This document shows, one piece after another, positions 8,862 to 30,542 of a stretch of DNA of 32,000 nucleotides; the stretch's first letter is position 1; each line of letters begins with the position of its first letter. This stretch comes from Deinococcus radiodurans R1 = ATCC 13939 = DSM 20539 (GTDB lineage: Bacteria > Deinococcota > Deinococci > Deinococcales > Deinococcaceae), in the NCBI RefSeq assembly GCF_000008565.1, contig NC_001263.1, positions 705,776 to 737,775 of the forward strand. Direction: 5' to 3'. The position numbers and the translations under genes are program-made. Below the pieces are notes generated by a model. It made no database searches. It worked only from the letters and a program-made list of their open reading frames with translations, and was not told the origin of the DNA.

Positions 8862-8931
8862 GTCTAAGGGTCTGAGCGTCTAGGGTCTATGCTGTTCTTT
8901 CTTAGACCTTTAGACCCTCTTCCCTTAGAAC
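8862..8931. repeat. Compound palindromic repeat inside the atpF-atpA intercistronic gap
   Basis: gtctaagggtct / gtctagggtcta on the left arm face tagaccttt / tagaccct / cccttagaa on the right arm. tctaaggg (8863-8870) pairs with cccttaga (8922-8929), and agggtcta (8882-8889) pairs with tagaccct (8911-8918). Confidence 0.6.
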
Positions 8932-8950
8932 TTTTCCGAAGGAGCATCAA

Positions 8951-12111
<3,161 letters not shown>

Positions 12112-12201
12112 AGGGCTGAGGGTTGAGAGCGCATGGCAAAAGACTTTGACCATGACCTCCCGACCCTCTACCATCACCACCAACGAGGGAGGTGAACACA
12201 A

Positions 12202-12876
12202 ATGGCAGGACAAATCAGCCCCACCCGCTCCGCGCTGCTCGCCAGCAAGGCCAGCCTCAAGACCGCCAACGGCGGCGCCGACCTGCTCAAGCGCAAGCGT
12301 GACGCCCTGATCGGCGAATTCTTTGCACTCGTCAAGGACGCGCTCGCCGCCCGTGAGCAGCTCTCGAGCGTGAGCAAAGGCGCGTATACCAGCCTCTTCG
12401 GCGCCAAAGCCTGGGACAGCCCCGAGGCCGTCGAGAGCCTGAGCCTCGCCGGGACCGGCGACTACGCCGTGGACATGCAGATCGAGAGCATCTACGGCGT
12501 GAAGGTGCCCAAGATCAACATCCCCGAGCGCGCCGCCCAGGCGGACTTCAGCCCGATCAACGTCGGCGCCCGCACCATTCAGGCGTCGAACGACTTCGGC
12601 GGGGTGCTCGAAGCCATCGTGAAGGTGGCGGCCACCGAAACCAAGCTGCGCCGCATCGGCGAGGAGATCAAAAAGACCTCGCGCCGCGTGAACGCACTTG
12701 AACAGGTGGTTATCCCCGGCATTCACGACGACATCCGCTTCATTCGCAGCGTGCTCGACCAGCGCGAACGCGAAGCCGGCTACACCCAGAAGAAGATCAA
12801 GGCCAAGATCGAGGGCAAGAACAAAGAAGCCCGCGAAGCCGCCGCCGCGACCAGCCACGGCAGCGCCGCCGACTGA
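12202..12876 (+). CDS. atpD: A/V-type ATPase central-stalk subunit D
   Basis: 224 aa. ISPTRSALLASKASLKTANGGADLLKRKRDALI is the typical N-terminus and RRVNALEQVVIP the C-terminal motif. SD gagggagg upstream. Confidence 0.93.
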   Translation: MAGQISPTRSALLASKASLKTANGGADLLKRKRDALIGEFFALVKDALAAREQLSSVSKGAYTSLFGAKAWDSPEAVESLSLAGTGDYAVDMQIESIYGVKVPKINIPERAAQADFSPINVGARTIQASNDFGGVLEAIVKVAATETKLRRIGEEIKKTSRRVNALEQVVIPGIHDDIRFIRSVLDQREREAGYTQKKIKAKIEGKNKEAREAAAATSHGSAAD

Positions 12877-14029: not shown

Positions 14030-14956
14030 TCAGGGCTGATTCAAAATCAACTTGTCGAGGCTCCGTTCGCCCACATAGGGAATGAGCCCCGCCGCCCGCG
14101 CCCGCTCCGCCGCGCTTTTCATCAGGGCGGGCTGGTTGGCGTACTCGATGGTGAAGACCGGTTTGCCCGCCTGCTGCCACAGCCGGTAACTGGCGAGTAG
14201 CTCGCGCTGCCGCGCGGCTTCGGTGGGCCGGTTGGCGGCATAGACGTAGGTTTCCTCGTTGCCGCTGGCGTCTACGCACGCCGCGTAGCCGGGGTCGCGG
14301 ATGAGTTCGGCAGCGTTCTGGGGAATGATGACGAACTGGGGATTTTGCGCGCGGGCGTGCGCGGCGATTTTGCACACCCACGCCACCATCTCGGCGCGGG
14401 CGCCAGGCCGGTTGTCATGGCGCTGGTAGGCGTCAATGAGGTCCATGTACACGCCGTCGAAGCCCTGCGCGATCACCCGGTCGAGCTGCGCCAGGGCAAT
14501 GGCTTGCCACGCGGGGTCCCAGTACGCCACGTCGAAGTTGCCGGGCCAGTCGGGGTCTTCGTTCAGCAGCCAGGCCGGCGCACCGACTTTCCAGCCCTTC
14601 TGCCAGTAGGAGCGGTAACTCTCGGCGGCGCCCATGCTGAGATAAGCGATGAGCCAGCGGCCCTGTGCGGCGGCCCGGACCTCGGCGGCGGGCCAGGGGG
14701 TGCCGTCGTCGTCGAAGGGGTCCACCACCACCAGCTCGAAGGGCGAGGTGTGAACTGCGTTCAGCCGCGTCTGCCCGTAGCCGGTGAGCTGCACCCCCCA
14801 GTGCTGAACGGCACTCAGCGCAGGTTTTTTGGAGGGCGGAGTCATGGGGACGGTGACTGGCGGAGGAGTCTGAGCGGGACCGGCGCCGCTGGCCTGGGGC
14901 TCGGACGGGCCAGCGCAGGCGGAGAGGAGCAGCAAAGAGCAGAGCAAGGGTTTCAT
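14030..14956 (-). CDS. Secreted lipoprotein, GH114 / TM1410-family TIM-barrel hydrolase (endo-alpha-1,4-polygalactosaminidase-like)
   Basis: 308 aa. Lipobox LLSAC. The blocks WGVQLTGYG, ELVVVDPFDDDG, WLIAYLSMGAAESYRSYW, DWPGNFDVAYWDPAWQ and GFDGVYMDLIDAY match my memory of the Glyco_hydro_114 / TM1410 consensus. SD ggaggaa. ATGA overlap with the upstream gene. Confidence 0.78.
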   Translation of the reverse strand: MKPLLCSLLLLSACAGPSEPQASGAGPAQTPPPVTVPMTPPSKKPALSAVQHWGVQLTGYGQTRLNAVHTSPFELVVVDPFDDDGTPWPAAEVRAAAQGRWLIAYLSMGAAESYRSYWQKGWKVGAPAWLLNEDPDWPGNFDVAYWDPAWQAIALAQLDRVIAQGFDGVYMDLIDAYQRHDNRPGARAEMVAWVCKIAAHARAQNPQFVIIPQNAAELIRDPGYAACVDASGNEETYVYAANRPTEAARQRELLASYRLWQQAGKPVFTIEYANQPALMKSAAERARAAGLIPYVGERSLDKLILNQP

Positions 14957-15711
14957 AGTTCCTCCAGGGCGGGCCAGCCGCCGGGCCGTGAGAGGGCGCG
15001 GTCACTGACGAAAGTAGGCAGGTTCAGCGCCGCTGCACGTGCCCTCGCGGCTGCCGCCAGTTCGGGCCGGTCGGCGTAGTCGAGCGCGTGTACGGCGAGT
15101 CCGCTGCGGCGCACCTCAGTCAGCCAGGCAGCGGTGTAGGCCAGCCCCGCCACGTCGTGCAGCGCGTAGGGCGTGTGGTGGGTGCTGAAGGCCTCAAACA
15201 ACACGCCGCTGTCGGGGGCGCTGCGCAGCAATTCCGGCAGCGCCGGCCACAGCGTAAAGCCCCGGTTGGCCCACAGCGCCGCCTGGGGAAACACCGCGCG
15301 CAGGTGCCGCAGCAGGGCGAGGGTCGCCGCCGGGTCCGCACTTTCCAGCGTGTCGAGGAGCAGGCCGTCGGTGTGTTCGAGCGCCTGCTCCGCCCGCGTC
15401 AGCAGGGTCGAGTGCCACAGCGGGTGCGCGGCGTCCACCACCACGCTCGGCCACGCGGCGTTGGGTTGCTGGTGGTAGGCGGCGCTGCCGGGGCGGCATT
15501 CCCAGTCTCCCAGCGGGTGGTCCTCGCCCACGCTGAGGTAAGCGAGAACGTGGGTGCTGCCGCCCCGCAGCGCCGCGAGTTGCTCAGGCGTATAAAGCGG
15601 CGCTTGCACGACCACCCGTGGAAAGGCCGCCAGCGTTGCCAGAGCCGGTGCGGTGGCTGGGCCGTAGTACACGGCGAGCTGCGGAGCGGGGGGCTCAGTG
15701 GGCGCTGACAT
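14953..15711 (-). CDS. Divergent GH114/PelA-hydrolase-like TIM-barrel protein with no obvious signal peptide
   Basis: 252 aa. LAVYYG, PRVVVQAP, HVLAYLSVGEDH and GLLLDTLES resemble the strand-end motifs of the neighbouring GH114-like protein. The start overlaps the upstream stop by 17 nt. No SD is seen. Confidence 0.6.
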   Translation of the reverse strand: MSAPTEPPAPQLAVYYGPATAPALATLAAFPRVVVQAPLYTPEQLAALRGGSTHVLAYLSVGEDHPLGDWECRPGSAAYHQQPNAAWPSVVVDAAHPLWHSTLLTRAEQALEHTDGLLLDTLESADPAATLALLRHLRAVFPQAALWANRGFTLWPALPELLRSAPDSGVLFEAFSTHHTPYALHDVAGLAYTAAWLTEVRRSGLAVHALDYADRPELAAAARARAAALNLPTFVSDRALSRPGGWPALEEL

Positions 15712-17851
15712 TCACAATGAGGGTGCCGCTCACGTCGCCGCTTTGCAGCCGCAGGGCGCCGTAGGGCTCGCCCGCCACGCCGCCAGTCAGCAGGTAGGGG
15801 AGCGGAGCCGCACTGGTGAGGGTCACCGTGCCCGCCGTGCGGTCATAGACGCCGCTCAGGTCGCCCCGGTCCTGAGCATGAATGGTGCGGGTGCGGCGTT
15901 CGAGGTAGGTGCCGAGGTCGTCCCAGCTCAGCGTGGTGAGTGGCAGGGTCGAGAAGGTGGAGTAGCGCCGCAGCAGCGCCCGCACCCAGTCGCTCGCCAC
16001 GCTTTTGCCGGGGGCGTACTCGCGCAGATTGGCCTGGTGCATGTAGTGGGGAAAGGCACCGCCGTCAAGCAGATGGTTCAGGGCAAAGCCGCTTTCCTGG
16101 TCGAGCAGCTCGGCGTAGCTCAGGTTGTGGTCCCAGTAAGGCGCCGTGCCCTGGGGGCCGTAGACACTGTTGTAGTACCCCGTCACCTCGTCGGGCGTGG
16201 TCGAGAAATAGGCGACGCCGTTGGGCCAGCGCGGCACCAGAAAGACATTTGGGTTGAGCGGGTGCGGCACGCCGCAGGTCGGGCAACCGGGGTCCCACTG
16301 GCTGTGCACGCTGTGGTCGGAGGCGATAAAGCGCACATTAGTCTTGTTCATCGCCGTCAGCAGGTTGACGTTGCTGCGCTCCAGGCCGAGGTCCTGCTTG
16401 GGCTGCTGGTACAGGCCGTTGTTGTGCGCGCCGTCGTCGGTCGGGTCCATGTAGCCCAGGCCCGATTGTTCGCCGGTCACCAGGGCCGCGCGGCTGAGCT
16501 TGAGGCCGAGTTGTGCCCCGACCCACAGGTTGTCCTGAAGTTGCGCGGTCGCCGTTGCCTCGTCCATCACGTCCATGCGGAGGTGGTCGTGGGTGTGGTT
16601 CACCCAGTCGAAGGTGTCGCCCAGACACTTGCTCGCACTGCTCAGCGCATCGGGGCTGAGCGCCAGCGACTCGCGGGTACACAGCAAGGGCGCGTTCGGC
16701 GTGGCGCCCAGCCCGTTGTAGGCCAGCGCGTAGCGGAAGGTGCGCGCCGCCGGAAACTCGGTTTCGATGGCCTGTTGCTGCTCCCGCAACGAGAGCGCGT
16801 CGCTGCCGCTGATGCGGAAAGGGTCTGAATAGAAACCGCCCGTCGCCGCGTCGTAGTGCGTGCCGGGCAAAAACCAGTCGTCGATGTCGATTTGCAGGAA
16901 CCGGCGGTGCTCGCCGAGGTGCACGCCGCGGGTCAGCCATTCCAGCAGACCGGAGCCGAGGAGCTGGGTGTGCGGCAGCGTGGGCGCCTGCATGGTGGTC
17001 AGCAGCAGCCGCTCGCGACCGTCGCTGGTGGTCGAGGTGGCGGCAAGCACCCGGCCCTGGGGGTCGGTGAGCAGCGGCGTGGTGCTCGCCACTCCGGGCA
17101 CCGGCACCACGGCGGCGGGGTAGGTGTAGGCGTAGAGCACCTGCATGGCCTGCGCGGTCAGGTCGAGCAGCGTGCGCTGGCCTTCCGGGGTCGCCTGCGC
17201 GGTGGTGAGCGTCGTAGCCGCGCCGTCCACCGCCCGCAGGCCGTAGTCCTCGGGCACCGCGCCCGGCCAGCCGAACAGCGCGAGTTGCCGGACCCGGTAG
17301 GCCCGCTCGTACTCGAACAGCGTTTGCCATTCGGTGCTGTCGAGCGCGCTGGGCAGCGGCCCCGGCTCACTGCTGGGCATCAGCAGGGCGCTGCTGGTGA
17401 GAATGACGCCTTGGTAGCGGCCCACACCGTCGCCGCGCACCAGCGTGTCCATCGTCAGTGGCTGGGCGCTCGCGTCGAGCACGTCGTAGGGAATGGCCGA
17501 CTCCTGCACCATGCTCAGGGCGCTGCTCAGGCCGAAGTCGCCCGCCCCGCTGCCGATGACGAGCACCCGCAGCGCCACCCGGTTCGTCTGGGCATTCGCG
17601 GGGAGGGCCTGCGCGTGCAAACTGGGCCCGCGCGGCACGTAGCCTTCATGGAGGCGGCGAGCGGCGTCCTGGGCCTCGGGCGAGGGCGCTTGCGGGGTAT
17701 TCAGGGGAGCTGCCGGGGCCGCGTGGTCAGGGGCCGTGGCTAGCGTCGTTTCCGGCAGAGCGGCGCCCGGCGTCACCGGCTCGCTTTGCCCGCAGGCGGC
17801 GAGCAGCAGGGTCACCGACACCAGGGCCGGCAAAGTGGGGAGACGTTTCAT
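15695..17851 (-). CDS. Large lipoprotein, putative polysaccharide deacetylase (Agd3/CE18-like), paralogue 2
   Basis: 718 aa. Lipobox LLAAC20. CE4-type motifs IDIDDWF (D322-D325), NHTHDH (H419..H423 as H-T-x-x-H) and LVPRWPNG. SD ggagga. Collinear with the 730-aa paralogue upstream. Confidence 0.7.
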   Translation of the reverse strand: MKRLPTLPALVSVTLLLAACGQSEPVTPGAALPETTLATAPDHAAPAAPLNTPQAPSPEAQDAARRLHEGYVPRGPSLHAQALPANAQTNRVALRVLVIGSGAGDFGLSSALSMVQESAIPYDVLDASAQPLTMDTLVRGDGVGRYQGVILTSSALLMPSSEPGPLPSALDSTEWQTLFEYERAYRVRQLALFGWPGAVPEDYGLRAVDGAATTLTTAQATPEGQRTLLDLTAQAMQVLYAYTYPAAVVPVPGVASTTPLLTDPQGRVLAATSTTSDGRERLLLTTMQAPTLPHTQLLGSGLLEWLTRGVHLGEHRRFLQIDIDDWFLPGTHYDAATGGFYSDPFRISGSDALSLREQQQAIETEFPAARTFRYALAYNGLGATPNAPLLCTRESLALSPDALSSASKCLGDTFDWVNHTHDHLRMDVMDEATATAQLQDNLWVGAQLGLKLSRAALVTGEQSGLGYMDPTDDGAHNNGLYQQPKQDLGLERSNVNLLTAMNKTNVRFIASDHSVHSQWDPGCPTCGVPHPLNPNVFLVPRWPNGVAYFSTTPDEVTGYYNSVYGPQGTAPYWDHNLSYAELLDQESGFALNHLLDGGAFPHYMHQANLREYAPGKSVASDWVRALLRRYSTFSTLPLTTLSWDDLGTYLERRTRTIHAQDRGDLSGVYDRTAGTVTLTSAAPLPYLLTGGVAGEPYGALRLQSGDVSGTLIVNVSAH

Positions 17852-17945
17852 GAGGGAGTCCTCCGGCCAGACAGCATTCCCAGCCTGTCACCGGCCATAT
17901 GTGCAGCGGCTTTCTTTCTGACGCTGCTTTGAGCGCCCTTGGCTG

Positions 17946-17979
17946 TATGACTCAAGACAAAATATGACTCACGACAAAA
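17946..17979. repeat. 17-nt tandem direct repeat (x2) upstream of paralogue 2
   Basis: tatgactcaagacaaaa (17946-17962) and tatgactcacgacaaaa (17963-17979) differ at one position. Each copy contains the palindromic heptamer TGACTCA. Confidence 0.8.
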
Positions 17980-18013
17980 CCCGCTCCTGGCAGAGAAGCC
18001 AGAAAAGCGGGTT
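17972..18013 (-). terminator. Intrinsic terminator between the two deacetylase paralogues
   Basis: Minus strand: AACCCGC-tttt-CTGGC ttctct GCCAG-ga-GCGGGTT, followed by TTGTCGT. It begins about 25 nt after the 730-aa gene's stop. Confidence 0.6.
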
Positions 18014-18037
18014 GCCGGGCGGCTCAGGCCACTGGCC

Positions 18038-20230
18038 TCAGCGCGGGGTGACGGCGAGGGTGGCCGCACCACTGACGGTGCCTTGCTGGCTGCGGGCCGT
18101 GCCATACAGTTCGCCGCTCGCACTGCCGGTCAGCGTGTAGGGCACAGACGCGGTGCTTTGCAGGGTCACGCTGCCGGCGGCGCGGTCATAGACGCCGCTC
18201 AGGTCGCCGGACGCTTTGGCCTTTTCCTCGCGGGTGCGGCGCTCGAGGTAGGCGCCGAGGTCGTCCCAGCGCAGGGTGTTGAGCGGCAAGGTGCTGTACT
18301 GGGCGTATTTGGTCAGCAGCGCCTGAACCCAGTCGGTCGCCAGGCTCTTGCCCCAGCCGTACTCGCGCAGGTTGGGCTGGTGCATATAGTGCGGGAACGC
18401 GGCGCCGTCGAGCACCTGACTCAGCGCCATGTCGCTCTCGTTGTTCAGGAACTCATTGTAGCTCAGGTTGTGATCCCAGTACGGAAAGCGTCCCTGCGGC
18501 CCGTAGACGCTGTTGTAGTACCCCGTCGCCTCGGCGGGCGTGGTGACGTGGTAGGCGACGCCGTTGGGCCAGCGTGGCACCAGGAAAATGCCGGGGTTGA
18601 GCGGGTGCAACACGCCGCAGGTGGGGCAGCTGTCGTCGCGCTGGCTGGCGACGCTGTGGTCGGACGCCAGGTAACGAATCCCGTTTTGCACGGCGGCGCC
18701 GAGCAGGTTTGGGTTGCTGCGTTCTAGACCCAGGTCCTGCTTGGGGTGTTGGTAAACGCCGTCGTTGTGAGTGCCGTCGTCAGTCGGGTCCATGAAGCCC
18801 AGACCCGAGTGTTCGCCGGTCACCAGCGACTGGCGGCTGATGGTCAGGCCCAGACGCGTCCCGATGGCGAAGTTGTCGGCGAGCTGGGCGTCGGCGGTGG
18901 CAAAGTCCGTCACGTCCATGCGCTGGTGGTCACGGGTGTGGTTCACCCAGTCGAAGGTGTTGCCCAGGCACTTGCTCGCGCTGCTCAGCGAATCCTTGGC
19001 GACGCCCGTGAACAGCGTGGTGCACAACGTCGCCACGTCGGTTCGCGCCCCGCCGCCGTTGAAAGCCATCGCGTAGCGGAAGTTGCGCGCTAGCGGGTAG
19101 TCGCTGCGAATGCGGCTCTGCTGGTCGCGCACCGCGAGCGCGTCGTTGCCGCTGATGCGGAAGGCTTTGTCGTACAGCCCCCCGGTGCTGGCGTTGTAGT
19201 GGTCGCCGGCCAGGAACCAGTCGTCGATGTCCACCTGCAGGAACCGGCGGTGCTCACCGAGGTGCACGCCGCGCGTCAGCCAGTTCACCAGCCCGTAGCT
19301 GAGCAGTTGCGTGTGCAGCAGCGCGGGGTTTTGCGCCGTGGTGAGCAGCAGCCGCTCGCGTCCGTCGGCACTCGTCGAGGTGGCGGCGAGCACGCGGCCC
19401 TGAGCGTCGGTCATCAGCGGGGTGGTGGTCACGCCGGGCACGCTGGCGACGGTGGCCGGGTAGGAGTAGGCGTAACGCACCGGGATGTTGGCGGTGGTCA
19501 GGTCGCTCAGGACACTGCGGCCCGCAGCGGTGGGGGTCATGCTGGTGGTCGAGGTTTCGGCCCCCGCCACCGCCCGCAGGCCGTAGTCCTCGGGCACGGC
19601 GCCGGGATAGCCGTAGAGCGCGAGCTGGCGCACGCCGTAGGCCTTCTCGTACTCGAACAGGGTCTGCCACTCGCTGCTGTCGAGCGCACTCGGCATCAGG
19701 CCGCTGCTGTCGGGTGGCAGGAGCAGGGCGTTGCTGGTCAAGATGACGCCCTGGTAGCGGCCCACGCCGTCGGGGCCGATCAGGGCGTCGGGCGTCAGCG
19801 GCTGGCTGCTGGCGTCGAGCACGTCGAAGGGCACGCCCGATTCGCCGAGCATGTTGCGGGCTTCGGCCAGGCCGTAATCGCCCGCGCCGCTCGACAGAAT
19901 CAGAACCTTGAGCGCGACCTTGTTCGTCTGCACCCCAGCGGGCAGCGCCTGCGCCGAGAGCGAGCGGCCCTGCGGCACGTACGCCGCTCCCAGGCGGGCA
20001 CGGGCGGCGGACGTGTCATTGTTCTGGGCGCGCAGCAGCGGCGACTGCCGGGGGTCGGGCAGGGTGCCCGTCTCGGTCGCCGCACGCGGGGCGGTCACTT
20101 CGTCCACCACGGTGGGGGGAACACTGGCGTTCGTCGCGTCGGGGGTCGTCCGGTCCTGACCACAGCCGGTCAGAGTAAGGGTGAGCGTCAGGGCACAGAG
20201 GGCGGCGGCAGAGGCGCGGAGGTGTTTCAT
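18038..20230 (-). CDS. Large lipoprotein, putative polysaccharide deacetylase (Agd3/CE18-like), paralogue 1
   Basis: 730 aa. Lipobox LTGC23. VDIDDWF (D334-D337), NHTRDH (H431..H435) and LVPRWPNG. SD gggag. Long blocks are shared with the 718-aa paralogue. Confidence 0.7.
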   Translation of the reverse strand: MKHLRASAAALCALTLTLTLTGCGQDRTTPDATNASVPPTVVDEVTAPRAATETGTLPDPRQSPLLRAQNNDTSAARARLGAAYVPQGRSLSAQALPAGVQTNKVALKVLILSSGAGDYGLAEARNMLGESGVPFDVLDASSQPLTPDALIGPDGVGRYQGVILTSNALLLPPDSSGLMPSALDSSEWQTLFEYEKAYGVRQLALYGYPGAVPEDYGLRAVAGAETSTTSMTPTAAGRSVLSDLTTANIPVRYAYSYPATVASVPGVTTTPLMTDAQGRVLAATSTSADGRERLLLTTAQNPALLHTQLLSYGLVNWLTRGVHLGEHRRFLQVDIDDWFLAGDHYNASTGGLYDKAFRISGNDALAVRDQQSRIRSDYPLARNFRYAMAFNGGGARTDVATLCTTLFTGVAKDSLSSASKCLGNTFDWVNHTRDHQRMDVTDFATADAQLADNFAIGTRLGLTISRQSLVTGEHSGLGFMDPTDDGTHNDGVYQHPKQDLGLERSNPNLLGAAVQNGIRYLASDHSVASQRDDSCPTCGVLHPLNPGIFLVPRWPNGVAYHVTTPAEATGYYNSVYGPQGRFPYWDHNLSYNEFLNNESDMALSQVLDGAAFPHYMHQPNLREYGWGKSLATDWVQALLTKYAQYSTLPLNTLRWDDLGAYLERRTREEKAKASGDLSGVYDRAAGSVTLQSTASVPYTLTGSASGELYGTARSQQGTVSGAATLAVTPR

Positions 20231-20346
20231 CAGGTCTCCCGATTGGACTTCACCCGCCGGCGCTGCGTGCGCGGGCCGCTGGGCGAAAAACTTGAGTGTC
20301 GACTGAGTGTTTTCTTGTCCACGGACTGGACAACGGTGTGAAAAAC

Positions 20347-21261
20347 TTAACTCCCACCAGAATACAACTCGGTCAACGCTGCCGCCAGGTCTTCGCCGGG
20401 GGTGTACCCACTCGCCTTAAGGGCCGTTAAATCTGCCCGCTGGTACGGCACGTCGCCGCTGCGGGGGCTGCCGGGGGCGTCTTCGAGCAGGTCGCCGCCG
20501 TAGCCGGCAATCCGCGCCAGTTCGGTCACGAGGTCGCGCACCGGGCGGGCCACGCCGCTGCCGAGGTTGAGCACGCCCCGCGCCTCCTCGCCCGGCTGTC
20601 CGTGGAGAAAGTGGAGCACCGCCCGCCCCACGTCCCGCGCCGCGATGAAGTCCCGGAAAGCGCCCAGCGGTCCGAAGCGCACGCTGGGGAGGCCCTGCTC
20701 GGCTGCTGCCCGCAGCTCCCGCGCCGCCCGGCCCGGCAGCGAGCCGGGGTTCATGCCTGCGCCCACCGGGTTGGTCAGCCGCAGCGCCAGCGCGTCGGCG
20801 CGGCCCGTCCGCACGGCTTCCTCCAGCAGCACCGTCCCTGCCAGCTTGCTCGCCCCGTAAGGCGAAAGCGGCTGCGCAGGGCCGTCCTCGCGGCTCGCCT
20901 CGCCCTCTGGGGTGCGCCCGTACTCGGCGGCGGAGGCGAGGTGGATGAGACGCAAGTCCGCCGCCTGCACCGCTTCGAGCACCCCGGCGAGCAACAGCAC
21001 GTTGGCGCGGGTGAGGTCGCTCAGGCTGCCAGCGGTGCGTCCGGCGGCGTTGATGACCGCGCTTGCGCCGTCAAGCTGGGCGGCCCAGTCTGCGGGCGTC
21101 AGCGCGGTGAGGTCGCCCGTCGTGGTCCGCACGTCCACCCCGGCGTCCCGCAGCTCACGGGCAATCACGCCGCCCAGAAACCCGCCCGCGCCGAGCAGGA
21201 GGACGCGGCCCGGCTGGGGTGGGGTTACGGAATTGGGGGTCACAGTTGCGGGGCCTATCAC
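20347..21261 (-). CDS. NAD-dependent sugar epimerase/dehydratase (extended SDR)
   Basis: 304 aa. Rossmann GAGGFLGG and catalytic PYGASK (YxxxK). GTG start in a GTGA overlap with the upstream nucleotidyltransferase stop. Confidence 0.8.
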   Translation of the reverse strand: MIGPATVTPNSVTPPQPGRVLLLGAGGFLGGVIARELRDAGVDVRTTTGDLTALTPADWAAQLDGASAVINAAGRTAGSLSDLTRANVLLLAGVLEAVQAADLRLIHLASAAEYGRTPEGEASREDGPAQPLSPYGASKLAGTVLLEEAVRTGRADALALRLTNPVGAGMNPGSLPGRAARELRAAAEQGLPSVRFGPLGAFRDFIAARDVGRAVLHFLHGQPGEEARGVLNLGSGVARPVRDLVTELARIAGYGGDLLEDAPGSPRSGDVPYQRADLTALKASGYTPGEDLAAALTELYSGGS

Positions 21262-22001
21262 AGTTGGGGAGGACGGGGCGGAATGCCGCCGGGCAGCAGG
21301 ACTTTTTGCATTTCATTCCACTGCTCGTTGGCGGTGTCGTAATCCTCGGGGCGCCCGATGTCGAGCCAGTAGCCGCCGAAGAGGTCGCTGCGTGGGCGCT
21401 CGCCCGCCGCGAGCAGGTCGAGCATCAGCGTGTCGAAGCCGAGCACCTGCCCCGGCTGGTAGCGGCCCAGGGTGCTTTTCGTCATGCCGTACACGCCCAT
21501 GCTGACCTGAAAGGGCACGGCGGGCTTTTCGCGGAAGGCGACGATGTGTTCGCCCGAGTCGTCCACGTCGAGCACGCCGAATTCGCTGCGAATCTCGCGG
21601 TGGTAGGTCGAAACCGTCAGCGGGTCGCCGCTCGCCATATGGCCGCGCAAAAAAGCGCCGTAATTGAGGTCGGTGAGCACGTCGCCGTTCATGATCAGGA
21701 AGTGCTCGGGCAGCCAGGGCAGCACGTTGAGCACCGGGCCGATGGTGCCGAGCGGCGTTTCTTCCTCGGTGTAGTCGATGTCGAGCCCGTACTGCCGCCC
21801 GTTGCCGACAAAGGCGCGGATGAGGTGGCTGAGGTGCCCCACCGCCAGCGTGACGCGGGTAAACCCGAACGACTTGAGCTGGTGAAGCACAATTTCCAGA
21901 ATCGAGAGTTCGCCGCCGATGGGCACGAGGGGCTTGGGAACGCGGGTGGTGTAGGGACGCAGGCGGGTGCCTTGGCCTCCGGCGAGGATGACGGCGTGCA
22001 T
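21258..22001 (-). CDS. Sugar-1-phosphate nucleotidyltransferase (NTP_transferase family)
   Basis: MHAVILAGGQGTRLRPYTTRVPKPLVPIGG is the canonical signature. The ATG at 22001 is preceded by gaaggagg. The ORF-track start at 22106 is an over-extension into the upstream gene. Confidence 0.88.
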   Translation of the reverse strand: MHAVILAGGQGTRLRPYTTRVPKPLVPIGGELSILEIVLHQLKSFGFTRVTLAVGHLSHLIRAFVGNGRQYGLDIDYTEEETPLGTIGPVLNVLPWLPEHFLIMNGDVLTDLNYGAFLRGHMASGDPLTVSTYHREIRSEFGVLDVDDSGEHIVAFREKPAVPFQVSMGVYGMTKSTLGRYQPGQVLGFDTLMLDLLAAGERPRSDLFGGYWLDIGRPEDYDTANEQWNEMQKVLLPGGIPPRPPQL

Positions 22002-22048
22002 GGGGCCTCCTTCAAAACGTAGGAATGTGACGAGCGGGGGGAGGGGGC

Positions 22049-23083
22049 TCAGATGGTGTACTGGTCCACCCGGTAACGGGCGAGGTTGCCAGCGTCGGTG
22101 AACCACTCGGCGGTGCGCTTCAGCCCCTCTTCGAGCGTCACCTGCGGCTGCCAGCCGGTCAGCGTCTGCAACTCGCGGTGGTCGGCGAGCAGGCGCATGA
22201 CTTCGCTGCCCTCGGGGCGCAGGCGCTCGTCTTCCTGCTTGACCTCTACGTCCTTGCCCATGACCTGCGCGATGAGTTTCACGGTGTCGCCCACACTGAT
22301 TTCGCGGCCCGAGCCGGCGTTGAGGGTGCGCCCGAGGACTTCCGGCCCCGCCTCGCCCACCGCACGAAAGGCGCGGGCGGTGTCGGCCACGTAGTTGAAG
22401 TCGCGGGTGGGGCGCAGGTCACCGAGCTTGATTTCGGTGCGCCCGGCGGCGAGCTGTGAGATGATCGTCGGAATGACCGCGCGGGCCGACTGGCGCGGGC
22501 CGTAGGTGTTGAAAGGCCGCAGCGTGACCACCGGCAGCCCGAAGCTGAGGAAATAGCTCTCGGCGAGCTTGTCGGCGCCGATTTTGGTGGCCGAGTAGGG
22601 CGACTGCCCTTGCAGCGGGTGCGACTCGTGGATGGGCACGCTGCGGGCGGTGCCGTAGACCTCGGAGGTCGAGGTGTGAATCACGCGCCCGGTGCCGAGG
22701 TCACGGGCGGCTTCGAGCACGTTCAGGGTGCCGGTGATGTTCGTCTCCACATACGAGCGCGGCGCGACGTAGGAGTAGGGAATGGCGATCAGCGCGGCGA
22801 GGTGGTACACGGTCTGCACGTCCCGCATCAGCGCCCGCACGCTGCCCGCGTCGCGCACGTCGCCGAGCTGCACTTCGACGTGTTCCATCACTTCGCCCGG
22901 CACGGTGTCGAGCCAGCCGTAGCTGCCCTGCGAGTTGTAGATCGCCATCGCCCGCACGCGGTAGCCCGCCCGCACGAGGTCTTCGGTGAGGTGCGAGCCG
23001 ATAAAGCCGTCGGCGCCGGTCACGGCCACCAGGGGGCGGGAGGTGCTGGAAGTGCTGGAGGCAGAAAGGTCAGTCTGGTTCAT
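22049..23083 (-). CDS. NDP-sugar dehydratase/epimerase (extended SDR)
   Basis: 344 aa. VTGADGFIGSHL, STSEVYG and YSATK. ATGA overlap with the upstream membrane-protein stop. Confidence 0.85.
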   Translation of the reverse strand: MNQTDLSASSTSSTSRPLVAVTGADGFIGSHLTEDLVRAGYRVRAMAIYNSQGSYGWLDTVPGEVMEHVEVQLGDVRDAGSVRALMRDVQTVYHLAALIAIPYSYVAPRSYVETNITGTLNVLEAARDLGTGRVIHTSTSEVYGTARSVPIHESHPLQGQSPYSATKIGADKLAESYFLSFGLPVVTLRPFNTYGPRQSARAVIPTIISQLAAGRTEIKLGDLRPTRDFNYVADTARAFRAVGEAGPEVLGRTLNAGSGREISVGDTVKLIAQVMGKDVEVKQEDERLRPEGSEVMRLLADHRELQTLTGWQPQVTLEEGLKRTAEWFTDAGNLARYRVDQYTI

Positions 23084-24564
23084 CGGTAACTCCGGAGGTC
23101 ATAGAGGGTGAACAGGGTAAGCGGCAGCAGGGCGAAGGCGGCGAAGAGCGAAAGCGCGGGCGGCGAGACACCCAGGGTCAGCAGCAGGCAAAAGCCCAGC
23201 CAGAAGGCGAGCAGCCAGCGCTCGCGCCGCTGGTTGGCAAGCCAGGTGCTCAGCAGCAGCGCGGCGCCGAAGGCCGACACCGTGACCAGGGCGGCGCGGC
23301 TCAGGTCGCTGAAGGGCAGGTCGCCAAGGGTGCCGGGGCCCGCCGCGCCAGCAGGAGCTGGGGTGCCGATGCCCAGCCAGCCGGCGGCCAACCAGCGCAC
23401 GGCGCTGAGCAGCGCGAGCAGGCTGAGCAGCCCCAGCCCGTAGACCAGCGCCGTGCCCAGCACCCGCGCCGCGCCCCGGCGCACCAGCAGGGTGAAACTG
23501 CCCTGCTGCCGGGCCACGTATTGCAGGCCCTGCTGCGCGTTCCACACCCCGGCTTCGAGCAGCCCGGCGCTGAGCACCAGCGGCAGCATGGTCCAGCCGC
23601 CCAGCCGCAGGCTCAGCCCCGCAAAGGCGGCGGCCAGCGCCCAGCCGTAAGCCGCCAGCCCCAGGCCGGGGCGCAGGGTGACAAACCGGGCGGGCAGTTC
23701 GCCGCCGTCGCGGGTGGCCCGCAGCGCGAGCAGCACCGGAAAGACGGCCAGGGCCGCGAGCGCCGCCACTGCCAGTCCCGTGCTCGGCAGCACATACAGC
23801 ATCCCGCCGAGCAGCAGCGCGGGCGCAAAGGCCCCGGCCACCTGCCCGCGTTCGCCCAGCGCCAGCATCACCCCGGCGGCGGCTCCGGCGAGGGCCACCG
23901 CGCCGCCCATCGCCGTGCCCCACAGCAGCGAGGTGGTCCACAGCCCGCTGCCGGGCCACAGCAGGGCGCTCAGGGCGCCGCCCAGCAGGCCGCAGGCGCC
24001 GCCCACCCACAGCGTCAGCCGCAGCGCCCGCCCCGGCGTCCCGAGCGGTTCGGCGTAGCGCACGCTGGCGATCAGTAGCGAGTAGCCCCAGCCGAAAGCC
24101 GCCGCGAACACGAAAGCCCGTCCGGTGACCGGGGGCGTGGCCTGTGCGATCAGCAGGCCGCACAGCCCCGGCAGCAGGTAGAGCGGCCCGCGCTGCGCGA
24201 GCTCCCAGGGAAAGCGGGGCCGCGCCTCACGCCGGGGCCGTTCCAGGGCGCGCCCGGTGCCGCGCTGCGCGTAGAGCCACTCGGCGGCGGCAAACAGCCC
24301 CCCGGCGCCGTAGCGGTCGCGCAGGCTCTCGTCGTTCAGGCCGTCGGCTTCGAGGTAGGCGGCGATTTCCAGCGCGTCCACCGCCCGCTCGCGGTCCGGG
24401 CGCAGCGTCAGGTCCACCTCGCGCAGCTTGTCAGGCAGCGGCAATTCGGCCAGGGCATCGGGGCGCGGCTCTCCTGCCGGGTCCGGCGCGCGTCCAGTGA
24501 GCACGTCGAAACCGGTCAGCGTGCCAGTGGGCGAGCCGGAGGACGTGGGAGGGCCTTTCACCAC
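23080..24564 (-). CDS. Polytopic inner-membrane protein with a soluble N-terminal domain of about 125 aa (occupies the PelG position)
   Basis: 494 aa. After a charged N-terminal domain there are about 10-11 Ala/Leu/Gly-rich hydrophobic segments. The GTG start lies 11 nt after the glycosyltransferase stop. No family motif was recognised by eye. Confidence 0.6.
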   Translation of the reverse strand: MVKGPPTSSGSPTGTLTGFDVLTGRAPDPAGEPRPDALAELPLPDKLREVDLTLRPDRERAVDALEIAAYLEADGLNDESLRDRYGAGGLFAAAEWLYAQRGTGRALERPRREARPRFPWELAQRGPLYLLPGLCGLLIAQATPPVTGRAFVFAAAFGWGYSLLIASVRYAEPLGTPGRALRLTLWVGGACGLLGGALSALLWPGSGLWTTSLLWGTAMGGAVALAGAAAGVMLALGERGQVAGAFAPALLLGGMLYVLPSTGLAVAALAALAVFPVLLALRATRDGGELPARFVTLRPGLGLAAYGWALAAAFAGLSLRLGGWTMLPLVLSAGLLEAGVWNAQQGLQYVARQQGSFTLLVRRGAARVLGTALVYGLGLLSLLALLSAVRWLAAGWLGIGTPAPAGAAGPGTLGDLPFSDLSRAALVTVSAFGAALLLSTWLANQRRERWLLAFWLGFCLLLTLGVSPPALSLFAAFALLPLTLFTLYDLRSYR

Positions 24565-24574
24565 AGCTCCCCCC

Positions 24575-26113
24575 TCACCACAGCTCGCCCGGTCCCTGTG
24601 AAGGCGAAAGTCGGGCGGCGCGGGCCACCGGGTAAGCGCGGCGGTAGGCGTCGAGGCAGCCGTCGAGGGTAAACAGGTCCATGACGCGGGCGCGGGCCGC
24701 CTGCCCGAGTTGCTGGCGCAGCGCCGGGTCGTCGAGCAGTTTGGTGAGCGCGTTCGCCACCCCGAGCGCGTCGCGGGGCCGCACGATGAGTCCGGCGTCG
24801 CCCACCGCCTCCGGCACGCCGCCCACCCGCGTGGCGACGGGGGGCCGGCCCATTGCCATCGCCTCGATCACCGTGTAGGGAAAGCCCTCGCTCACGCTGG
24901 TCAGCGCCACCACCTGCCCGGCGCGGTAGGCGTCGGTGATGTCGTCCACCCGGCCCTCGAACTTCACGTGCTCGTCGAGGTTCAGCCCCGCTGCCACCTG
25001 CCGGCAGTGCTGCTCGTAGCCCTCGTTGCCGACGGGCGTGCCGCCGAACAGCCGCAGGCGGGCGTCGGGGCGGCGGCGGCGCACGAGGTCGAAGGCGCGA
25101 ATCAGGGTTTCGAGGTCCTTCAGGGGATCCACCCGGCCCACCCAGCTCACCACCGGCCCTTCCGGTTCCGATTCGGCGGGCGGAAAGATATTGGGGTCAA
25201 TGCCGTTGTAGACGCACTGAATGCGGTCTGGGTCGGCGCCCAGCCGTTCTTCCCAGCGGCGGTTGTAGTGCGAGCCGGGCAGCACCAGCGCCGCGTTTTG
25301 GTAGGCCACCGAGCACAGCAGGCGGTAAAAGCGCAGCAGCATGGTCTTGTACCCCGGCGCGTGCCGCCCCCGCCGGAACTCGATGTAGCGCTCGCGCAGG
25401 TAGATGCCGTGCTCTGTCAGGACGAAGGGCGTGCCGCGCTGCCACAGCCCATGTAGCGCCAGCATCGCCGCGAAGCCGTTGCTCACCGCGTGCCCCACGT
25501 CGGCCTCGGGGGGCACGGCGGTCAGGGGCCGCAGGGCGTGTTCGAGCCAGATCTGCACGTCGAGCGCCTCGGCCACCGTCGGGCGCGGTAAGCGGGGGCT
25601 GAGGCGGTCACGCTGGGCAGCGAGGGTCTGCGCCTCGCGGTCCCAGAGGTTGAGGGTGAGCTGCGCGGCCCGCGCACTGTCGAGCGCCGGGGTCAGGCTG
25701 CCGCGCTGGCCGAGGTCACTCAGGCGCCGCAGCGCCACGCTGAAGGTGGGCACGTCGAGCCGGCACAGCCCGGTGAGCAGCGTCTCGTAGGCGGTCAGCA
25801 CCTCACCCGCAAAGGCCCGGCGGTGGGCCTGCTGCCACAGCCGCCCGCCCGCGCCGCCGGGAGGTGGCCCCCACAGCGGCACCTGCTCGACCTGCACGTT
25901 GCCGGGCACCTCCAGCGCCATGCGGGTAAACGGCAGCCCGGCAATCGCCTGCACCGCGAACTGGTGGTCGCTCAGCCCGCGCACCAGTTGGTCCACCCAC
26001 ACGCTCACGCCGCCGTGCGCCTGCGGGTAGGTGCCCTCGGTGTACAGCGCGATGCGGGTCGCCGCGCGGGCGGGGAGCGCCGGGGATGAATTGGAAGTCA
26101 GGGGCAGAGTCAT
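24575..26113 (-). CDS. PelF-like glycosyltransferase (DUF3492 N-domain + GT4)
   Basis: 512 aa from the ATG at 26113. IALYTEGTYPQAHGGVSVWVDQLVRGLSDHQF matches the PelF/DUF3492 N-terminal signature as I recall it. The C-terminal GT4 part has VSWVGRVDPLKD, LTSVSEGFPYTVIEAMAMGRPPVAT (EX7E). The 111 codons upstream in the track ORF are Arg/Pro/Ser-rich junk. Confidence 0.85.
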   Translation of the reverse strand: MTLPLTSNSSPALPARAATRIALYTEGTYPQAHGGVSVWVDQLVRGLSDHQFAVQAIAGLPFTRMALEVPGNVQVEQVPLWGPPPGGAGGRLWQQAHRRAFAGEVLTAYETLLTGLCRLDVPTFSVALRRLSDLGQRGSLTPALDSARAAQLTLNLWDREAQTLAAQRDRLSPRLPRPTVAEALDVQIWLEHALRPLTAVPPEADVGHAVSNGFAAMLALHGLWQRGTPFVLTEHGIYLRERYIEFRRGRHAPGYKTMLLRFYRLLCSVAYQNAALVLPGSHYNRRWEERLGADPDRIQCVYNGIDPNIFPPAESEPEGPVVSWVGRVDPLKDLETLIRAFDLVRRRRPDARLRLFGGTPVGNEGYEQHCRQVAAGLNLDEHVKFEGRVDDITDAYRAGQVVALTSVSEGFPYTVIEAMAMGRPPVATRVGGVPEAVGDAGLIVRPRDALGVANALTKLLDDPALRQQLGQAARARVMDLFTLDGCLDAYRRAYPVARAARLSPSQGPGELW

Positions 26114-26366: not shown

Positions 26367-27167
26367 TCAGGGCTCGGAGTCTGCCTCGTACTTGTCGTCG
26401 AGGTACTGGCCGTGAGCCCGCAGCGCCCGCTGGCCGGCCTGGGCACGCTCGCGGGTCACGGCGGCCATGCGCGTTTCGATGCGGGCGAGTTGGCCGAGCA
26501 GTTCCTCGTCCTGCCGCGCGCCGCTCGGCAGTGCCTGATAAGCGGCGAGCAGGTCGGGCAGGTCCTCGCGCGCCGCTTGCTGGGCGTCGAAAGCGGCGCG
26601 GGAGAGGGTCGTTTCTCCGGCAGTCGCCCTTAGCGCGTCACGGGTGGCGATGACGGTGGCGTGCAGCGCGGGTCGGGTCGCCGGTGGCAAAGCCCGCTCG
26701 TGCTCGCGCAGCAGCGTGAGCAGGGCGCCTTCCTCGGGCGACGTGGTAACGGCAGGAACACTCAGCGGAGCGCGCAGCAGTCCCGCCGCTCGCCAGCCGG
26801 TCCACAGCAGGCCGAGCAGCCCCAGCAGCAGCGCCGCGCCGAGCAGCCACCCCGCCGGCGCGCTGCCGTTCGCCACGCCGATGCCGAGCACGACCAGCAG
26901 CGGCAGCAGCACCAGGGCGCCCAGGCCCGCCAGCGCGAGCAGCACCGCCAACCCGACCCCGCGCCGCGCCACCTGCTGTCCCTGCTCTTTGCGCCGTTGC
27001 CAGCGGGCCGCGCTCGACTCCGCTCTGGTCCACTCCGCTTTGGCCCAGGGGTCGCGGGGGTCCTCGGCGGTCTGGGGCCGCAACAATTCCCGCAGCGCCG
27101 GCGCTCCTATGGAAGAAAGCGCGGCGTTGCGAGAGTCGGTGGGCGGTGCGGGCGGTCGTGAAGCCAT
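26367..27167 (-). CDS. Hypothetical membrane protein (two TM segments + C-terminal helical domain; XpaC-like topology?)
   Basis: 266 aa. Two adjacent hydrophobic helices (GLAVLLALAGLGALVLLPLLVVLGIG, WLLGAALLLGLLGLLWTGW), then an Ala/Arg/Leu-rich helical region. The start is 3 nt after the mug stop. Confidence 0.6.
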   Translation of the reverse strand: MASRPPAPPTDSRNAALSSIGAPALRELLRPQTAEDPRDPWAKAEWTRAESSAARWQRRKEQGQQVARRGVGLAVLLALAGLGALVLLPLLVVLGIGVANGSAPAGWLLGAALLLGLLGLLWTGWRAAGLLRAPLSVPAVTTSPEEGALLTLLREHERALPPATRPALHATVIATRDALRATAGETTLSRAAFDAQQAAREDLPDLLAAYQALPSGARQDEELLGQLARIETRMAAVTRERAQAGQRALRAHGQYLDDKYEADSEP

Positions 27168-30401: not shown

Positions 30402-30542
30402 GCGTTCGGAATCGCTCTGGCGGCCTGCCTCAGTTTTGCTGCCGATACTGACAAATCATCGGTAAAAATGCCGCCGCAGTGGGGGCGTCAAGCGTAGTCA
30501 CCGCTGCTTAGGTCTCCGCCTTCGGATGCTAGACTCTCAGTC

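Follow-up and report, generated by a model that had tools for sequence, protein, structure and literature searches.

A nine-gene locus of Deinococcus radiodurans R1 that combines a PelF-family glycosyltransferase with Agd3-like deacetylases

A 32,000-nucleotide stretch of the Deinococcus radiodurans R1 genome (contig NC_001263.1, positions 705,776 to 737,775 of the forward strand; hereafter, the window) was found, from its table of open reading frames (ORFs) and their translations, to harbor nine consecutive minus-strand genes at positions 14030-26113. An earlier note on this DNA had proposed that these genes join a synthase resembling that of the Pel polysaccharide of Pseudomonas to processing enzymes resembling those of galactosaminogalactan (GAG) in Aspergillus, and that the product is a deacetylated polymer rich in N-acetylgalactosamine (GalNAc). 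In the direction of transcription, the genes are as follows.

24575-26113, minus strand: PelF-family GT4 glycosyltransferase (GT), 512 aa from its ATG
23080-24564, minus strand: polytopic membrane protein, 494 aa
22049-23083, minus strand: LegB-family short-chain dehydrogenase/reductase (SDR), 344 aa
21258-22001, minus strand: sugar-1-phosphate nucleotidyltransferase, 247 aa from its ATG
20347-21261, minus strand: second SDR, 304 aa
18038-20230, minus strand: Agd3-like lipoprotein 'b', 730 aa
15695-17851, minus strand: Agd3-like lipoprotein 'a', 718 aa
14953-15711, minus strand: homologue of the PelA hydrolase domain (GH166-type), 252 aa
14030-14956, minus strand: GH191 lipoprotein, 308 aa

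The ORF coordinates bore out the nine same-strand genes of the earlier note, with their three 4-nt overlaps (14953/14956, 21258/21261 and 23080/23083), one 17-nt overlap (15695/15711) and gaps of 186 nt (17852-18037), 116 nt (20231-20346) and 47 nt (22002-22048); the spacing between the GT and membrane protein genes, given there as 11 nt, is 10 nt (24565-24574). A codon-position GC check revealed the high third-position GC typical of coding sequence in seven of the nine genes, and the two without this signal, encoding the membrane protein and the nucleotidyltransferase, were backed by homologues and by a Pfam match, respectively. Seven of the nine products matched curated Pfam or NCBIfam families above cutoff; of the other two, the 252-aa protein matched the PelA hydrolase domain in the PDB and the membrane protein had 44 homologues.

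Both large lipoproteins, described in the earlier note as Agd3/CE18-like, proved to be related to Agd3, the deacetylase of the GAG cluster. Searched with the CBM87 and CE18 Pfam models built from Agd3 (PF25116 and PF25115), the two paralogues scored above the gathering scores, lipoprotein 'b' (730 aa) yielding 46.7 bits for CBM87_Agd3 and 43.4 bits for Agd3_CE (gathering score, 27.6), and lipoprotein 'a' (718 aa) yielding 43.1 and 38.0 bits, respectively. Both proteins further matched the sequence of the Agd3 crystal structure (PDB 6NWZ), lipoprotein 'b' with E=1.9e-13. The paralogues are 64% identical and share the same motifs and the same succession of a CBM87 domain, a CE18 de-N-acetylase domain and a beta-rich C-terminal domain; each contains a D-D motif (DIDDWF) and an H-T-x-x-H motif (NHTRDH or NHTHDH). 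Upon alignment, residues D377/D378, H510/H514, R613 and M666/H668 of Agd3 fell on D336/D337 (catalytic motif 1 [CM1]), H431/H435 (CM2), R553 (CM3) and M616/H617 (CM4, YMHQPNLR) of lipoprotein 'b', the M and H of CM4 being adjacent through a one-residue deletion relative to the M-x-H of Agd3. All of these residues were invariant in a four-sequence alignment, and those aligned here at CM1-CM4 were shown to be essential in Agd3 by Bamford et al. (PMC7229062). Lipoboxes were present in both proteins (LLAAC in 'a' and LTLTGC in 'b'). With the motifs and domains of CE18/CBM87 (Agd3) proteins found in both paralogues, lipoproteins 'a' and 'b' are predicted on sequence grounds to be CE18 de-N-acetylases.

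The 512-aa GT combines the two features of PelF, a GT4 domain (Glycos_transf_1 and Glyco_trans_1_4) and an N-terminal DUF3492 domain (PF11997, E=5.4e-46), and scored 175.5 bits against the NCBIfam PelF model NF038011 (cutoff, 100), in agreement with its earlier reading as a PelF-like DUF3492/GT4 transferase. It is 28-31% identical to annotated proteobacterial PelF proteins and 48-54% identical to the GTs of actinobacterial-type clusters, and its orthologues are annotated as pelF by the NCBI Prokaryotic Genome Annotation Pipeline; other names given by this pipeline to orthologues of the cluster's products are LegB, "endo alpha-1,4 polygalactosaminidase" and "MJ1477/TM1410 family". Neither a signal peptide nor a transmembrane (TM) segment was found in the 512-aa GT, which is presumed to be a cytoplasmic polymerase.

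In the loci compared, the gene for the membrane protein was invariably the next after the pelF-like gene. The 494-aa protein has approximately 12 TM helices (AlphaFold2 [AF2] model with a confidence score, pLDDT, of 84.2). Near its N terminus, roughly between residues 40 and 110, it has a conserved helical domain that is cytoplasmic and contains its most conserved residues (E72, G75, D78 and F91). No Pfam or NCBIfam family was matched, yet a profile search of 1.8 billion representatives retrieved about 160 relatives; the homologue from Deinococcus sp. PESE-13 is 97% identical. The pelF-pelG-like synteny asserted in the earlier note held for the position and fold class of this protein, and failed for its sequence family. 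Indeed, none of 51 sequences (the 494-aa protein and 50 distant relatives) matched PelG (PF16933) at E<=1, a model against which genuine PelG proteins scored 168-426 bits, and the hhalign probability between the membrane protein family and PelG was 0.2%, with a PelG alignment of two rows only that limits the sensitivity of this comparison. Homology to PelG was rejected at the sequence level on these two grounds. Foldseek comparison of the AF2 model with the PDB returned as top matches almost only MATE, MurJ and WzxE structures of the MOP superfamily (TM score 0.4-0.5, E>=2e-3). Sequence and model together point to a positional and probably functional analogue of PelG that lies outside the detectable PelG family, and the protein is presumed to serve as the translocation partner of the GT.

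The two remaining enzymes, encoded at the 3' end of the block, had been assigned in the earlier note to the GH114/TM1410 superfamily. Both are TIM-barrel hydrolases, and their place in the alpha-1,4-galactosaminidase superfamily stood; the 308-aa lipoprotein, however, belongs to GH191 rather than GH114. It scored 472.6 bits against NCBIfam TIGR01370 (MJ1477/TM1410; cutoff, 181) and 120.8 bits against Pfam GH114, and its PDB matches were 9EP5 (Env-GH191, 9e-43), TM1410 (2e-35) and the GH114 enzyme Ega3 (2.5e-7). The GH191 family is defined by the two structures nearest to the 308-aa protein, and one of them, Env-GH191 (9EP5), cleaves Pel (PMC12054363). Alignment with 9EP5 showed conservation of the YMD and PQNxxE catalytic positions, so that both the sequence membership and the Asp/Glu catalytic pair of GH191 were found in the 308-aa protein, which bears a lipobox of its own (LLSAC) and is predicted to be an endo-alpha-1,4-galactosaminidase-type hydrolase. 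The 252-aa protein, in turn, scored below the cutoff of Pfam GH114 (16.5 bits) and matched the hydrolase domain of PelA (PDB 5TCB, E=1.2e-12), and the equivalents of PelA D160, N199, R200 and E218 were invariant when 14 Deinococcus orthologues were aligned with PelA. Spherulin-4/GH135 had no Pfam match among the nine proteins. The earlier statement that the locus lacks recognizable PelA, PelB, PelC, PelD and PelE was thus wrong for the hydrolase half of PelA and right for its deacetylase half and for the other four, since Pfam and NCBIfam detected no PelB/PelC, PelD or PelE domain in the nine proteins or in ten flanking ones. Of the profile searches suggested in the same note as a check, those for DUF3492, Glycos_transf_1, Agd3 CE/CBM87 and, in the 308-aa protein, GH114 were positive, and those for PelG and for GH114 in the 252-aa protein, at its cutoff, were not.

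The GH166-type protein is leaderless. None of the 14 orthologues displayed a hydrophobic leader ahead of the xVYYG motif, and in the window and seven other loci the stop-bounded ORF begins no more than 32 codons before this conserved motif; B. cereus PelAH, for its part, has a signal sequence. An upstream start with a signal peptide was rejected on account of an in-frame stop just before xVYYG in the window and several other loci; where no such stop closes the frame, its upstream extension overlaps the Agd3 gene before it, read in a different frame, and encodes no hydrophobic leader. Also rejected was a fusion or frameshift joining Agd3 'a' to the GH166-type ORF in imitation of PelA, the two genes being 10-60 nt apart in other loci. 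In the related cluster of Streptomyces, a leaderless GH135-type protein ahead of a lipoprotein hydrolase takes the place of the Deinococcus GH166-type protein; on the Streptomyces californicus plasmid (locus L026, 12663-13325), it is a spherulin-4 protein without signal peptide whose GH114 neighbor carries a lipobox. The presence of leaderless hydrolases at the same place in Deinococcus and Streptomyces suggests a conserved cytoplasmic role or non-classical export.

Between the synthase and processing genes lie two SDRs and a nucleotidyltransferase. These families had been recognized correctly in the earlier note, but the mapping of an SDR onto Uge3-like epimerases is doubtful, the 344-aa SDR being of the LegB type. 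This protein scored 483.1 bits against NCBIfam TIGR04180 (LegB; cutoff, 475), the next-best models being dTDP-glucose dehydratase (172.6 bits) and GalE (136.7 bits). Along its whole length, it shares 60% identity with a LegB encoded beside LegC, NeuC, NeuB and a CMP-transferase in Rhizobium sp. WL3, and it is 50.6% identical to C. jejuni legB. In alignment, its STSEVYG segment corresponds to STDEVYG in the dehydratase DesIV and to SSSSAVYG in an epimerase, and the dehydratase Glu is kept. Thus, a score above the LegB cutoff, the dehydratase Glu after the catalytic Thr and the identity to LegB proteins were all found, in a genomic context that, unlike the usual LegB cassette, is without LegC or NeuB. 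Characterized LegB converts GDP-GlcNAc (GlcNAc, N-acetylglucosamine), not UDP-GlcNAc, to GDP-2-acetamido-2,6-dideoxy-xylo-hexos-4-ulose (PMC5378307), and the 344-aa SDR is predicted to be an NDP-GlcNAc 4,6-dehydratase (NDP, nucleoside diphosphate), the nucleotide probably being GDP. The 247-aa nucleotidyltransferase matched Pfam NTP_transferase (E=1e-33) and reached no NCBIfam equivalog, its best model being that of mannose-1-phosphate guanylyltransferase (130.8 bits, cutoff 440); its closest PDB entries are UGPase, GMPPB, HddC and MurU, and it is 33% identical to the PtmE-like nucleotidyltransferase of the Rhizobium legionaminic acid cluster. By sequence it is a generic member of its family, with guanylyl- and uridylyl-transferases as best matches. 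The 304-aa SDR (Pfam Epimerase, E=1.3e-29) is devoid of the dehydratase acid/base pair (SAAEYG). Its best PDB match was the Pel-associated UDP-GlcNAc C4-epimerase PelX (6WJB, E=1e-18, 71 bits), followed by GDP-4-keto-6-deoxymannose reductases and GDP-fucose synthase, and its reaction may be either 4-keto reduction or C4-epimerization. Most simply, the trio can be read as performing activation, 4,6-dehydration and 4-reduction, yielding an NDP-6-deoxy-N-acetylhexosamine (NDP-6-deoxy-HexNAc). Because the 344-aa SDR is LegB-type and not GalE/Uge3-type, the sugar is possibly a 6-deoxy-HexNAc rather than GalNAc, and the "GalNAc-rich" polymer of the earlier note is not established.

To assess conservation, one genome per species was scanned with Agd3-derived patterns, which yielded 18 Deinococcus loci, and the nine window proteins were compared with these by tblastn. 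The shared order is PelF, TM protein, LegB-like SDR, nucleotidyltransferase, SDR, Agd3 (one to three copies), GH166-type protein and GH191 protein. About 12 loci have this order complete or short only of a match to the terminal GH191 gene, another locus has a rearranged order, and a further one is a second copy that has diverged; the megaplasmids of D. aquaticus, D. grandis and D. ficus provided three further examples with unrelated flanks. In all, at least 13 Deinococcus loci, chromosomal or plasmid-borne and differently flanked, retain this order, and the co-conservation of the nine genes that the earlier note had named as a check is strong. Given this spread over chromosomes and megaplasmids with unrelated flanks, the block is a mobile module of patchy distribution; a megablast search of plasmids with the locus gave a DNA-level match to D. 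aquaticus only. The LegB-like gene is the most conserved of the cluster, with 85-91% identity within Deinococcus and 64-76% outside, on contigs where the identity is some 50% for PelF and some 30-40% for the membrane protein. The Streptomyces californicus plasmid encodes an Agd3-like protein, PelF, a TM protein, a LegB-like SDR, a nucleotidyltransferase and an SDR, then spherulin-4 (GH135-type) and the GH114 lipoprotein, and a 74%-GC metagenome contig carries Agd3-like, DUF3492-GT, TM protein, SDR and nucleotidyltransferase genes. Two side observations concern copy number within Deinococcus. D. marmoris has the cluster twice, the second copy, on contig-4000011 (L008), being divergent (PelF 47%, LegB-like 66% and GH166-type 40% identity), and D. 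arenicola and D. oregonensis (L009 and L018) each have an extra Agd3-like gene with no other cluster genes detected in the stretches around it.

One candidate regulatory element stands out within the block.

17978-18013, minus strand: GC-rich hairpin with a trailing UUUUG, within the 186 nt that separate the deacetylase genes

Its fold energy is -23.3 kcal/mol (z=-5.0 versus shuffles), and it was also flagged by a terminator scan in which the total count of terminator-like sites in the region was not above chance. A different GC-rich hairpin occupies the equivalent position in two related loci (L002 and L003). The element is possibly an internal terminator, an attenuator or an RNA-stability element and, in view of the hairpins at this place in the window and in both relatives, the last three genes may form a separate or attenuated unit. 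A sigma-70 promoter scan found no sites, and no Rfam family was found in the window. Two other sequence elements were noted in the larger gaps. A perfect inverted repeat, TTGTCCA-N5-TGGACAA (20315-20333, minus strand), lies ahead of the first deacetylase gene, within the 116-nt gap, and is a candidate operator; as an RNA hairpin it is not more stable than shuffles (z=-0.56). A direct repeat, TGAGTCATA, present twice 8 nt apart (17946-17971, minus strand), lies just downstream of the 17978-18013 hairpin and upstream of the second deacetylase gene, and is a candidate promoter or operator element.

On one side, the block is flanked by genes for V-type ATPase A, B and D subunits, a cupin and an HD_3 phosphohydrolase (8906-12876, plus strand), and on the other by genes for a uracil-DNA glycosylase family protein, a molybdopterin oxidoreductase, an M17 peptidase and a GAF/HD-GYP protein; the site looks chromosomal, in contrast to the megaplasmid sites in D. 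aquaticus, D. grandis, D. ficus and D. yunweiensis. The GAF and HD-GYP protein (30498-31898, plus strand), in which both the HD and GYP motifs are present, is encoded 4.4 kb from the GT gene, and each of three other clusters, those of the D. aquaticus and D. yunweiensis plasmids and that of D. rufus, has an HD-GYP gene at a distance of about 3 kb or less (L001 2876-4021; L007 ~16250-16822; L010 ~16074-16646). This proximity may reflect a link to cyclic di-GMP (c-di-GMP) or a coincidence, the three loci perhaps sharing one flank. In D. grandis, D. ficus and the 74%-GC metagenome contig (L027 2399-3106; L028 5033-5722; L024 752-1411), the pelF-like or Agd3-like gene is immediately preceded by an OmpR-type (winged-helix) response regulator gene, which is missing from the window. 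A 266-aa membrane protein encoded upstream of the GT gene (26367-27167, minus strand) was rejected as a tenth member of the cluster, being kept only in the two closest relatives; it matched no family, is 53% identical in L002 and L003, and is probably outside the module.

The architecture itself is already known. Bamford et al. (2020, Nat Commun 11:2450, PMC7229062) catalogued bacterial operons with Agd3 homologues, naming Deinococcus-Thermus among their hosts, and reported a cytoplasmic GT and a multi-spanning membrane protein as constant features of these operons, with GH114 genes that are often multi-copy. In their Supplementary Data 2, D. marmoris, D. grandis and D. planocerae are listed with the same gene order as the window. 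The claim of the earlier note that this architecture was undescribed is unsupported, because the same layout had been catalogued in Deinococcus in 2020; its caveat that pel-like loci might already have been catalogued was apt. All the components of an Agd3-type operon (a three-domain Agd3 with CM1-CM4, a GT, a TM protein and hydrolases) were found in the window, in an order matching that given for D. marmoris and D. planocerae in the same supplement, and the window adds another member to the class. Like the operons of that bioinformatic catalogue, some from the same genus, it encodes a GT, a multi-TM protein, an SDR, a nucleotidyltransferase, a further SDR, Agd3 copies and glycoside hydrolase copies, the difference being that the window has two Agd3 copies. 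Relative to the main text of that paper and the supplement entries compared here, our analysis adds the LegB-type dehydratase, the leaderless GH166-type hydrolase, the GH191 assignment and the MOP-like partner that is not PelG.

Like the Pel systems of P. aeruginosa (pelABCDEFG) and B. cereus (pelDEADAFG), the locus encodes a polytopic membrane protein after a PelF-family GT, together with a PelA-hydrolase-type enzyme and a metal-dependent de-N-acetylase, of Agd3-like three-domain layout, that is expected to make the polymer cationic. It differs by the absence of a PelG family member, PelB, PelC, PelD and PelE, by a deacetylase of CE18 instead of CE21 (PelA) or CE26 (PelADA), by a hydrolase that is a separate leaderless protein whereas PelA is a bifunctional periplasmic GH166 and CE21 enzyme, and by a linked SDR of LegB rather than GalE/PelX type. 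With the A. fumigatus GAG cluster (uge3, gtb3, agd3, ega3 and sph3) it shares a CE18 and CBM87 deacetylase with CM1-CM4, hydrolases of the alpha-1,4-galactosaminidase superfamily and a sugar-nucleotide enzyme encoded in the cluster. Unlike that cluster, it encodes the GT, of the PelF family, and the TM protein as separate proteins, has GH191 and GH166-type hydrolases in place of GH114 and GH135 (the Streptomyces relative having GH135 and GH114), and probably has a dehydratase pathway in place of the Uge3 epimerase. Finally, the locus resembles the legionaminic acid pathway (LegB/PtmE of C. jejuni and T. forsythia) in that the 344-aa SDR, 50-60% identical to LegB, is encoded beside a nucleotidyltransferase; it differs in having a simple SDR and no LegC aminotransferase, NeuB/NeuC-type genes or CMP-transferase, so the pathway of the window would stop at a 6-deoxy-HexNAc.

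On balance, we favor a biosynthetic role for the locus, as one operon or a pair of neighboring transcription units belonging to the bacterial Agd3-type Pel/GAG-like class. In such a system, the cytoplasmic PelF-family GT4 would polymerize an N-acetyl-hexosamine-type sugar from a nucleotide donor, and the 12-TM MOP-fold membrane protein, in the place of PelG, would carry the chain across the cytoplasmic membrane. Outside this membrane, the two lipid-anchored CE18/CBM87 deacetylases would strip part of the N-acetyl groups, yielding a cationic, adhesive polymer that the lipid-anchored GH191 enzyme and the leaderless GH166-type hydrolase would cut or trim. The donor would be supplied by the nucleotidyltransferase, the LegB-family 4,6-dehydratase and the second SDR, which may lead from NDP-GlcNAc through NDP-4-keto-6-deoxy-GlcNAc to NDP-N-acetylquinovosamine (NDP-QuiNAc) or NDP-N-acetylfucosamine (NDP-FucNAc), with GDP as the probable nucleotide. 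On that route, the polymer would probably contain 6-deoxy-HexNAc rather than, or besides, GalNAc. A more specific version is possible but decidedly tentative: the conserved core (PelF-like GT, MOP-like protein distinct from PelG, LegB-type dehydratase, nucleotidyltransferase and SDR) would make GDP-6-deoxy-HexNAc (QuiNAc/FucNAc), the product would be a partially de-N-acetylated poly-6-deoxy-hexosamine, a cationic matrix polymer of new chemistry that differs from both Pel and GAG, and the leaderless GH166/GH135-type protein would work at the synthase from the cytoplasmic side.

Several points weigh against this biosynthetic scheme. Deinococcus has an outer membrane and an S-layer; the cluster encodes neither a PelB/PelC-like outer-membrane export component nor a PelD-like c-di-GMP receptor, and, for want of the former, the release of the polymer across these layers is unexplained. 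The missing export signal of the GH166-type protein is a misfit with extracytoplasmic trimming. As to the donor, the LegB score of the 344-aa SDR is a mere 8 bits over the cutoff, the D. grandis cluster is without the second (304-aa) SDR, and the table of Bamford et al. (PMC7229062) includes Thermus and Meiothermus clusters without sugar-nucleotide genes. Literature searches yielded, beyond that study, no experimental work on Deinococcus or other bacterial members of the class.

An alternative, in line with the earlier note, is that the locus makes an ordinary Pel/GAG-type, partially deacetylated alpha-1,4-GalNAc polymer, the 304-aa SDR acting as a PelX/Uge3-like epimerase that supplies UDP-GalNAc, and the LegB-like protein and nucleotidyltransferase making a minor or side-chain sugar or boosting the precursor. 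We regard this as a possibility, albeit a doubtful one. All of the characterized relatives of the processing enzymes (Agd3, the PelA hydrolase domain and Env-GH191) act on alpha-1,4-GalNAc or galactosamine; PelX is the best solved relative of the 304-aa SDR, which leaves a UDP-GalNAc route possible; and, in the supplementary table, the Agd3-type clusters of Thermus, Meiothermus and S. lavendulae have no sugar-nucleotide genes, so that the backbone donor can come from general metabolism. On the other hand, the match to PelX is weak (71 bits) and nearly equaled by those to reductases, D. grandis retains the LegB-like and nucleotidyltransferase genes in spite of lacking the 304-aa SDR, and these two genes are the most conserved and are tied to the PelF-TM pair from Deinococcus to Streptomyces, which would be odd for an accessory decoration.

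It is improbable that the polymer is instead a cell-envelope glycopolymer, wall-associated or S-layer-anchoring, lying between the cytoplasmic membrane and the outer layers and not released as an exopolysaccharide. The absence of a PelB/PelC-type or other outer-membrane export gene from the nine genes and their flanks and the lipid anchoring of all the extracytoplasmic enzymes would be consistent with such a product; yet Pel, including its Gram-positive version, and GAG are matrix polymers, and nothing in the sequence indicates a wall-ligation enzyme. Least of all do we expect a catabolic or antagonistic locus whose deacetylases and hydrolases attack foreign Pel or fungal GAG beside unrelated GT and sugar-nucleotide genes, for although GH191 and GH166 enzymes are able to disrupt the biofilms of other organisms and the strong hairpin sets the last three genes apart from the rest, the synteny of the synthase and processing halves extends over at least 13 loci and to Streptomyces, and the block contains no transporter or sugar-catabolic gene.

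With the biosynthetic reading and the membership of the cluster in a catalogued class, the questions that it raises are sharpened: whether its sugar is a 6-deoxy-HexNAc, what role a leaderless hydrolase plays in a synthase-dependent pathway, and what substitutes for PelG, PelD and outer-membrane export. The LegB-type link is the most interesting remainder, as it turns the choice between GalNAc and 6-deoxy-HexNAc into a testable question. Many microbes owe their adhesion and tolerance to cationic, partly deacetylated amino-sugar polymers such as Pel, GAG and poly-N-acetylglucosamine (PNAG). If functional in Deinococcus, a system of this kind would lend weight to the proposal that the fungal GAG cluster came from bacteria, and could bear on aggregation, biofilm formation and desiccation tolerance in these bacteria.

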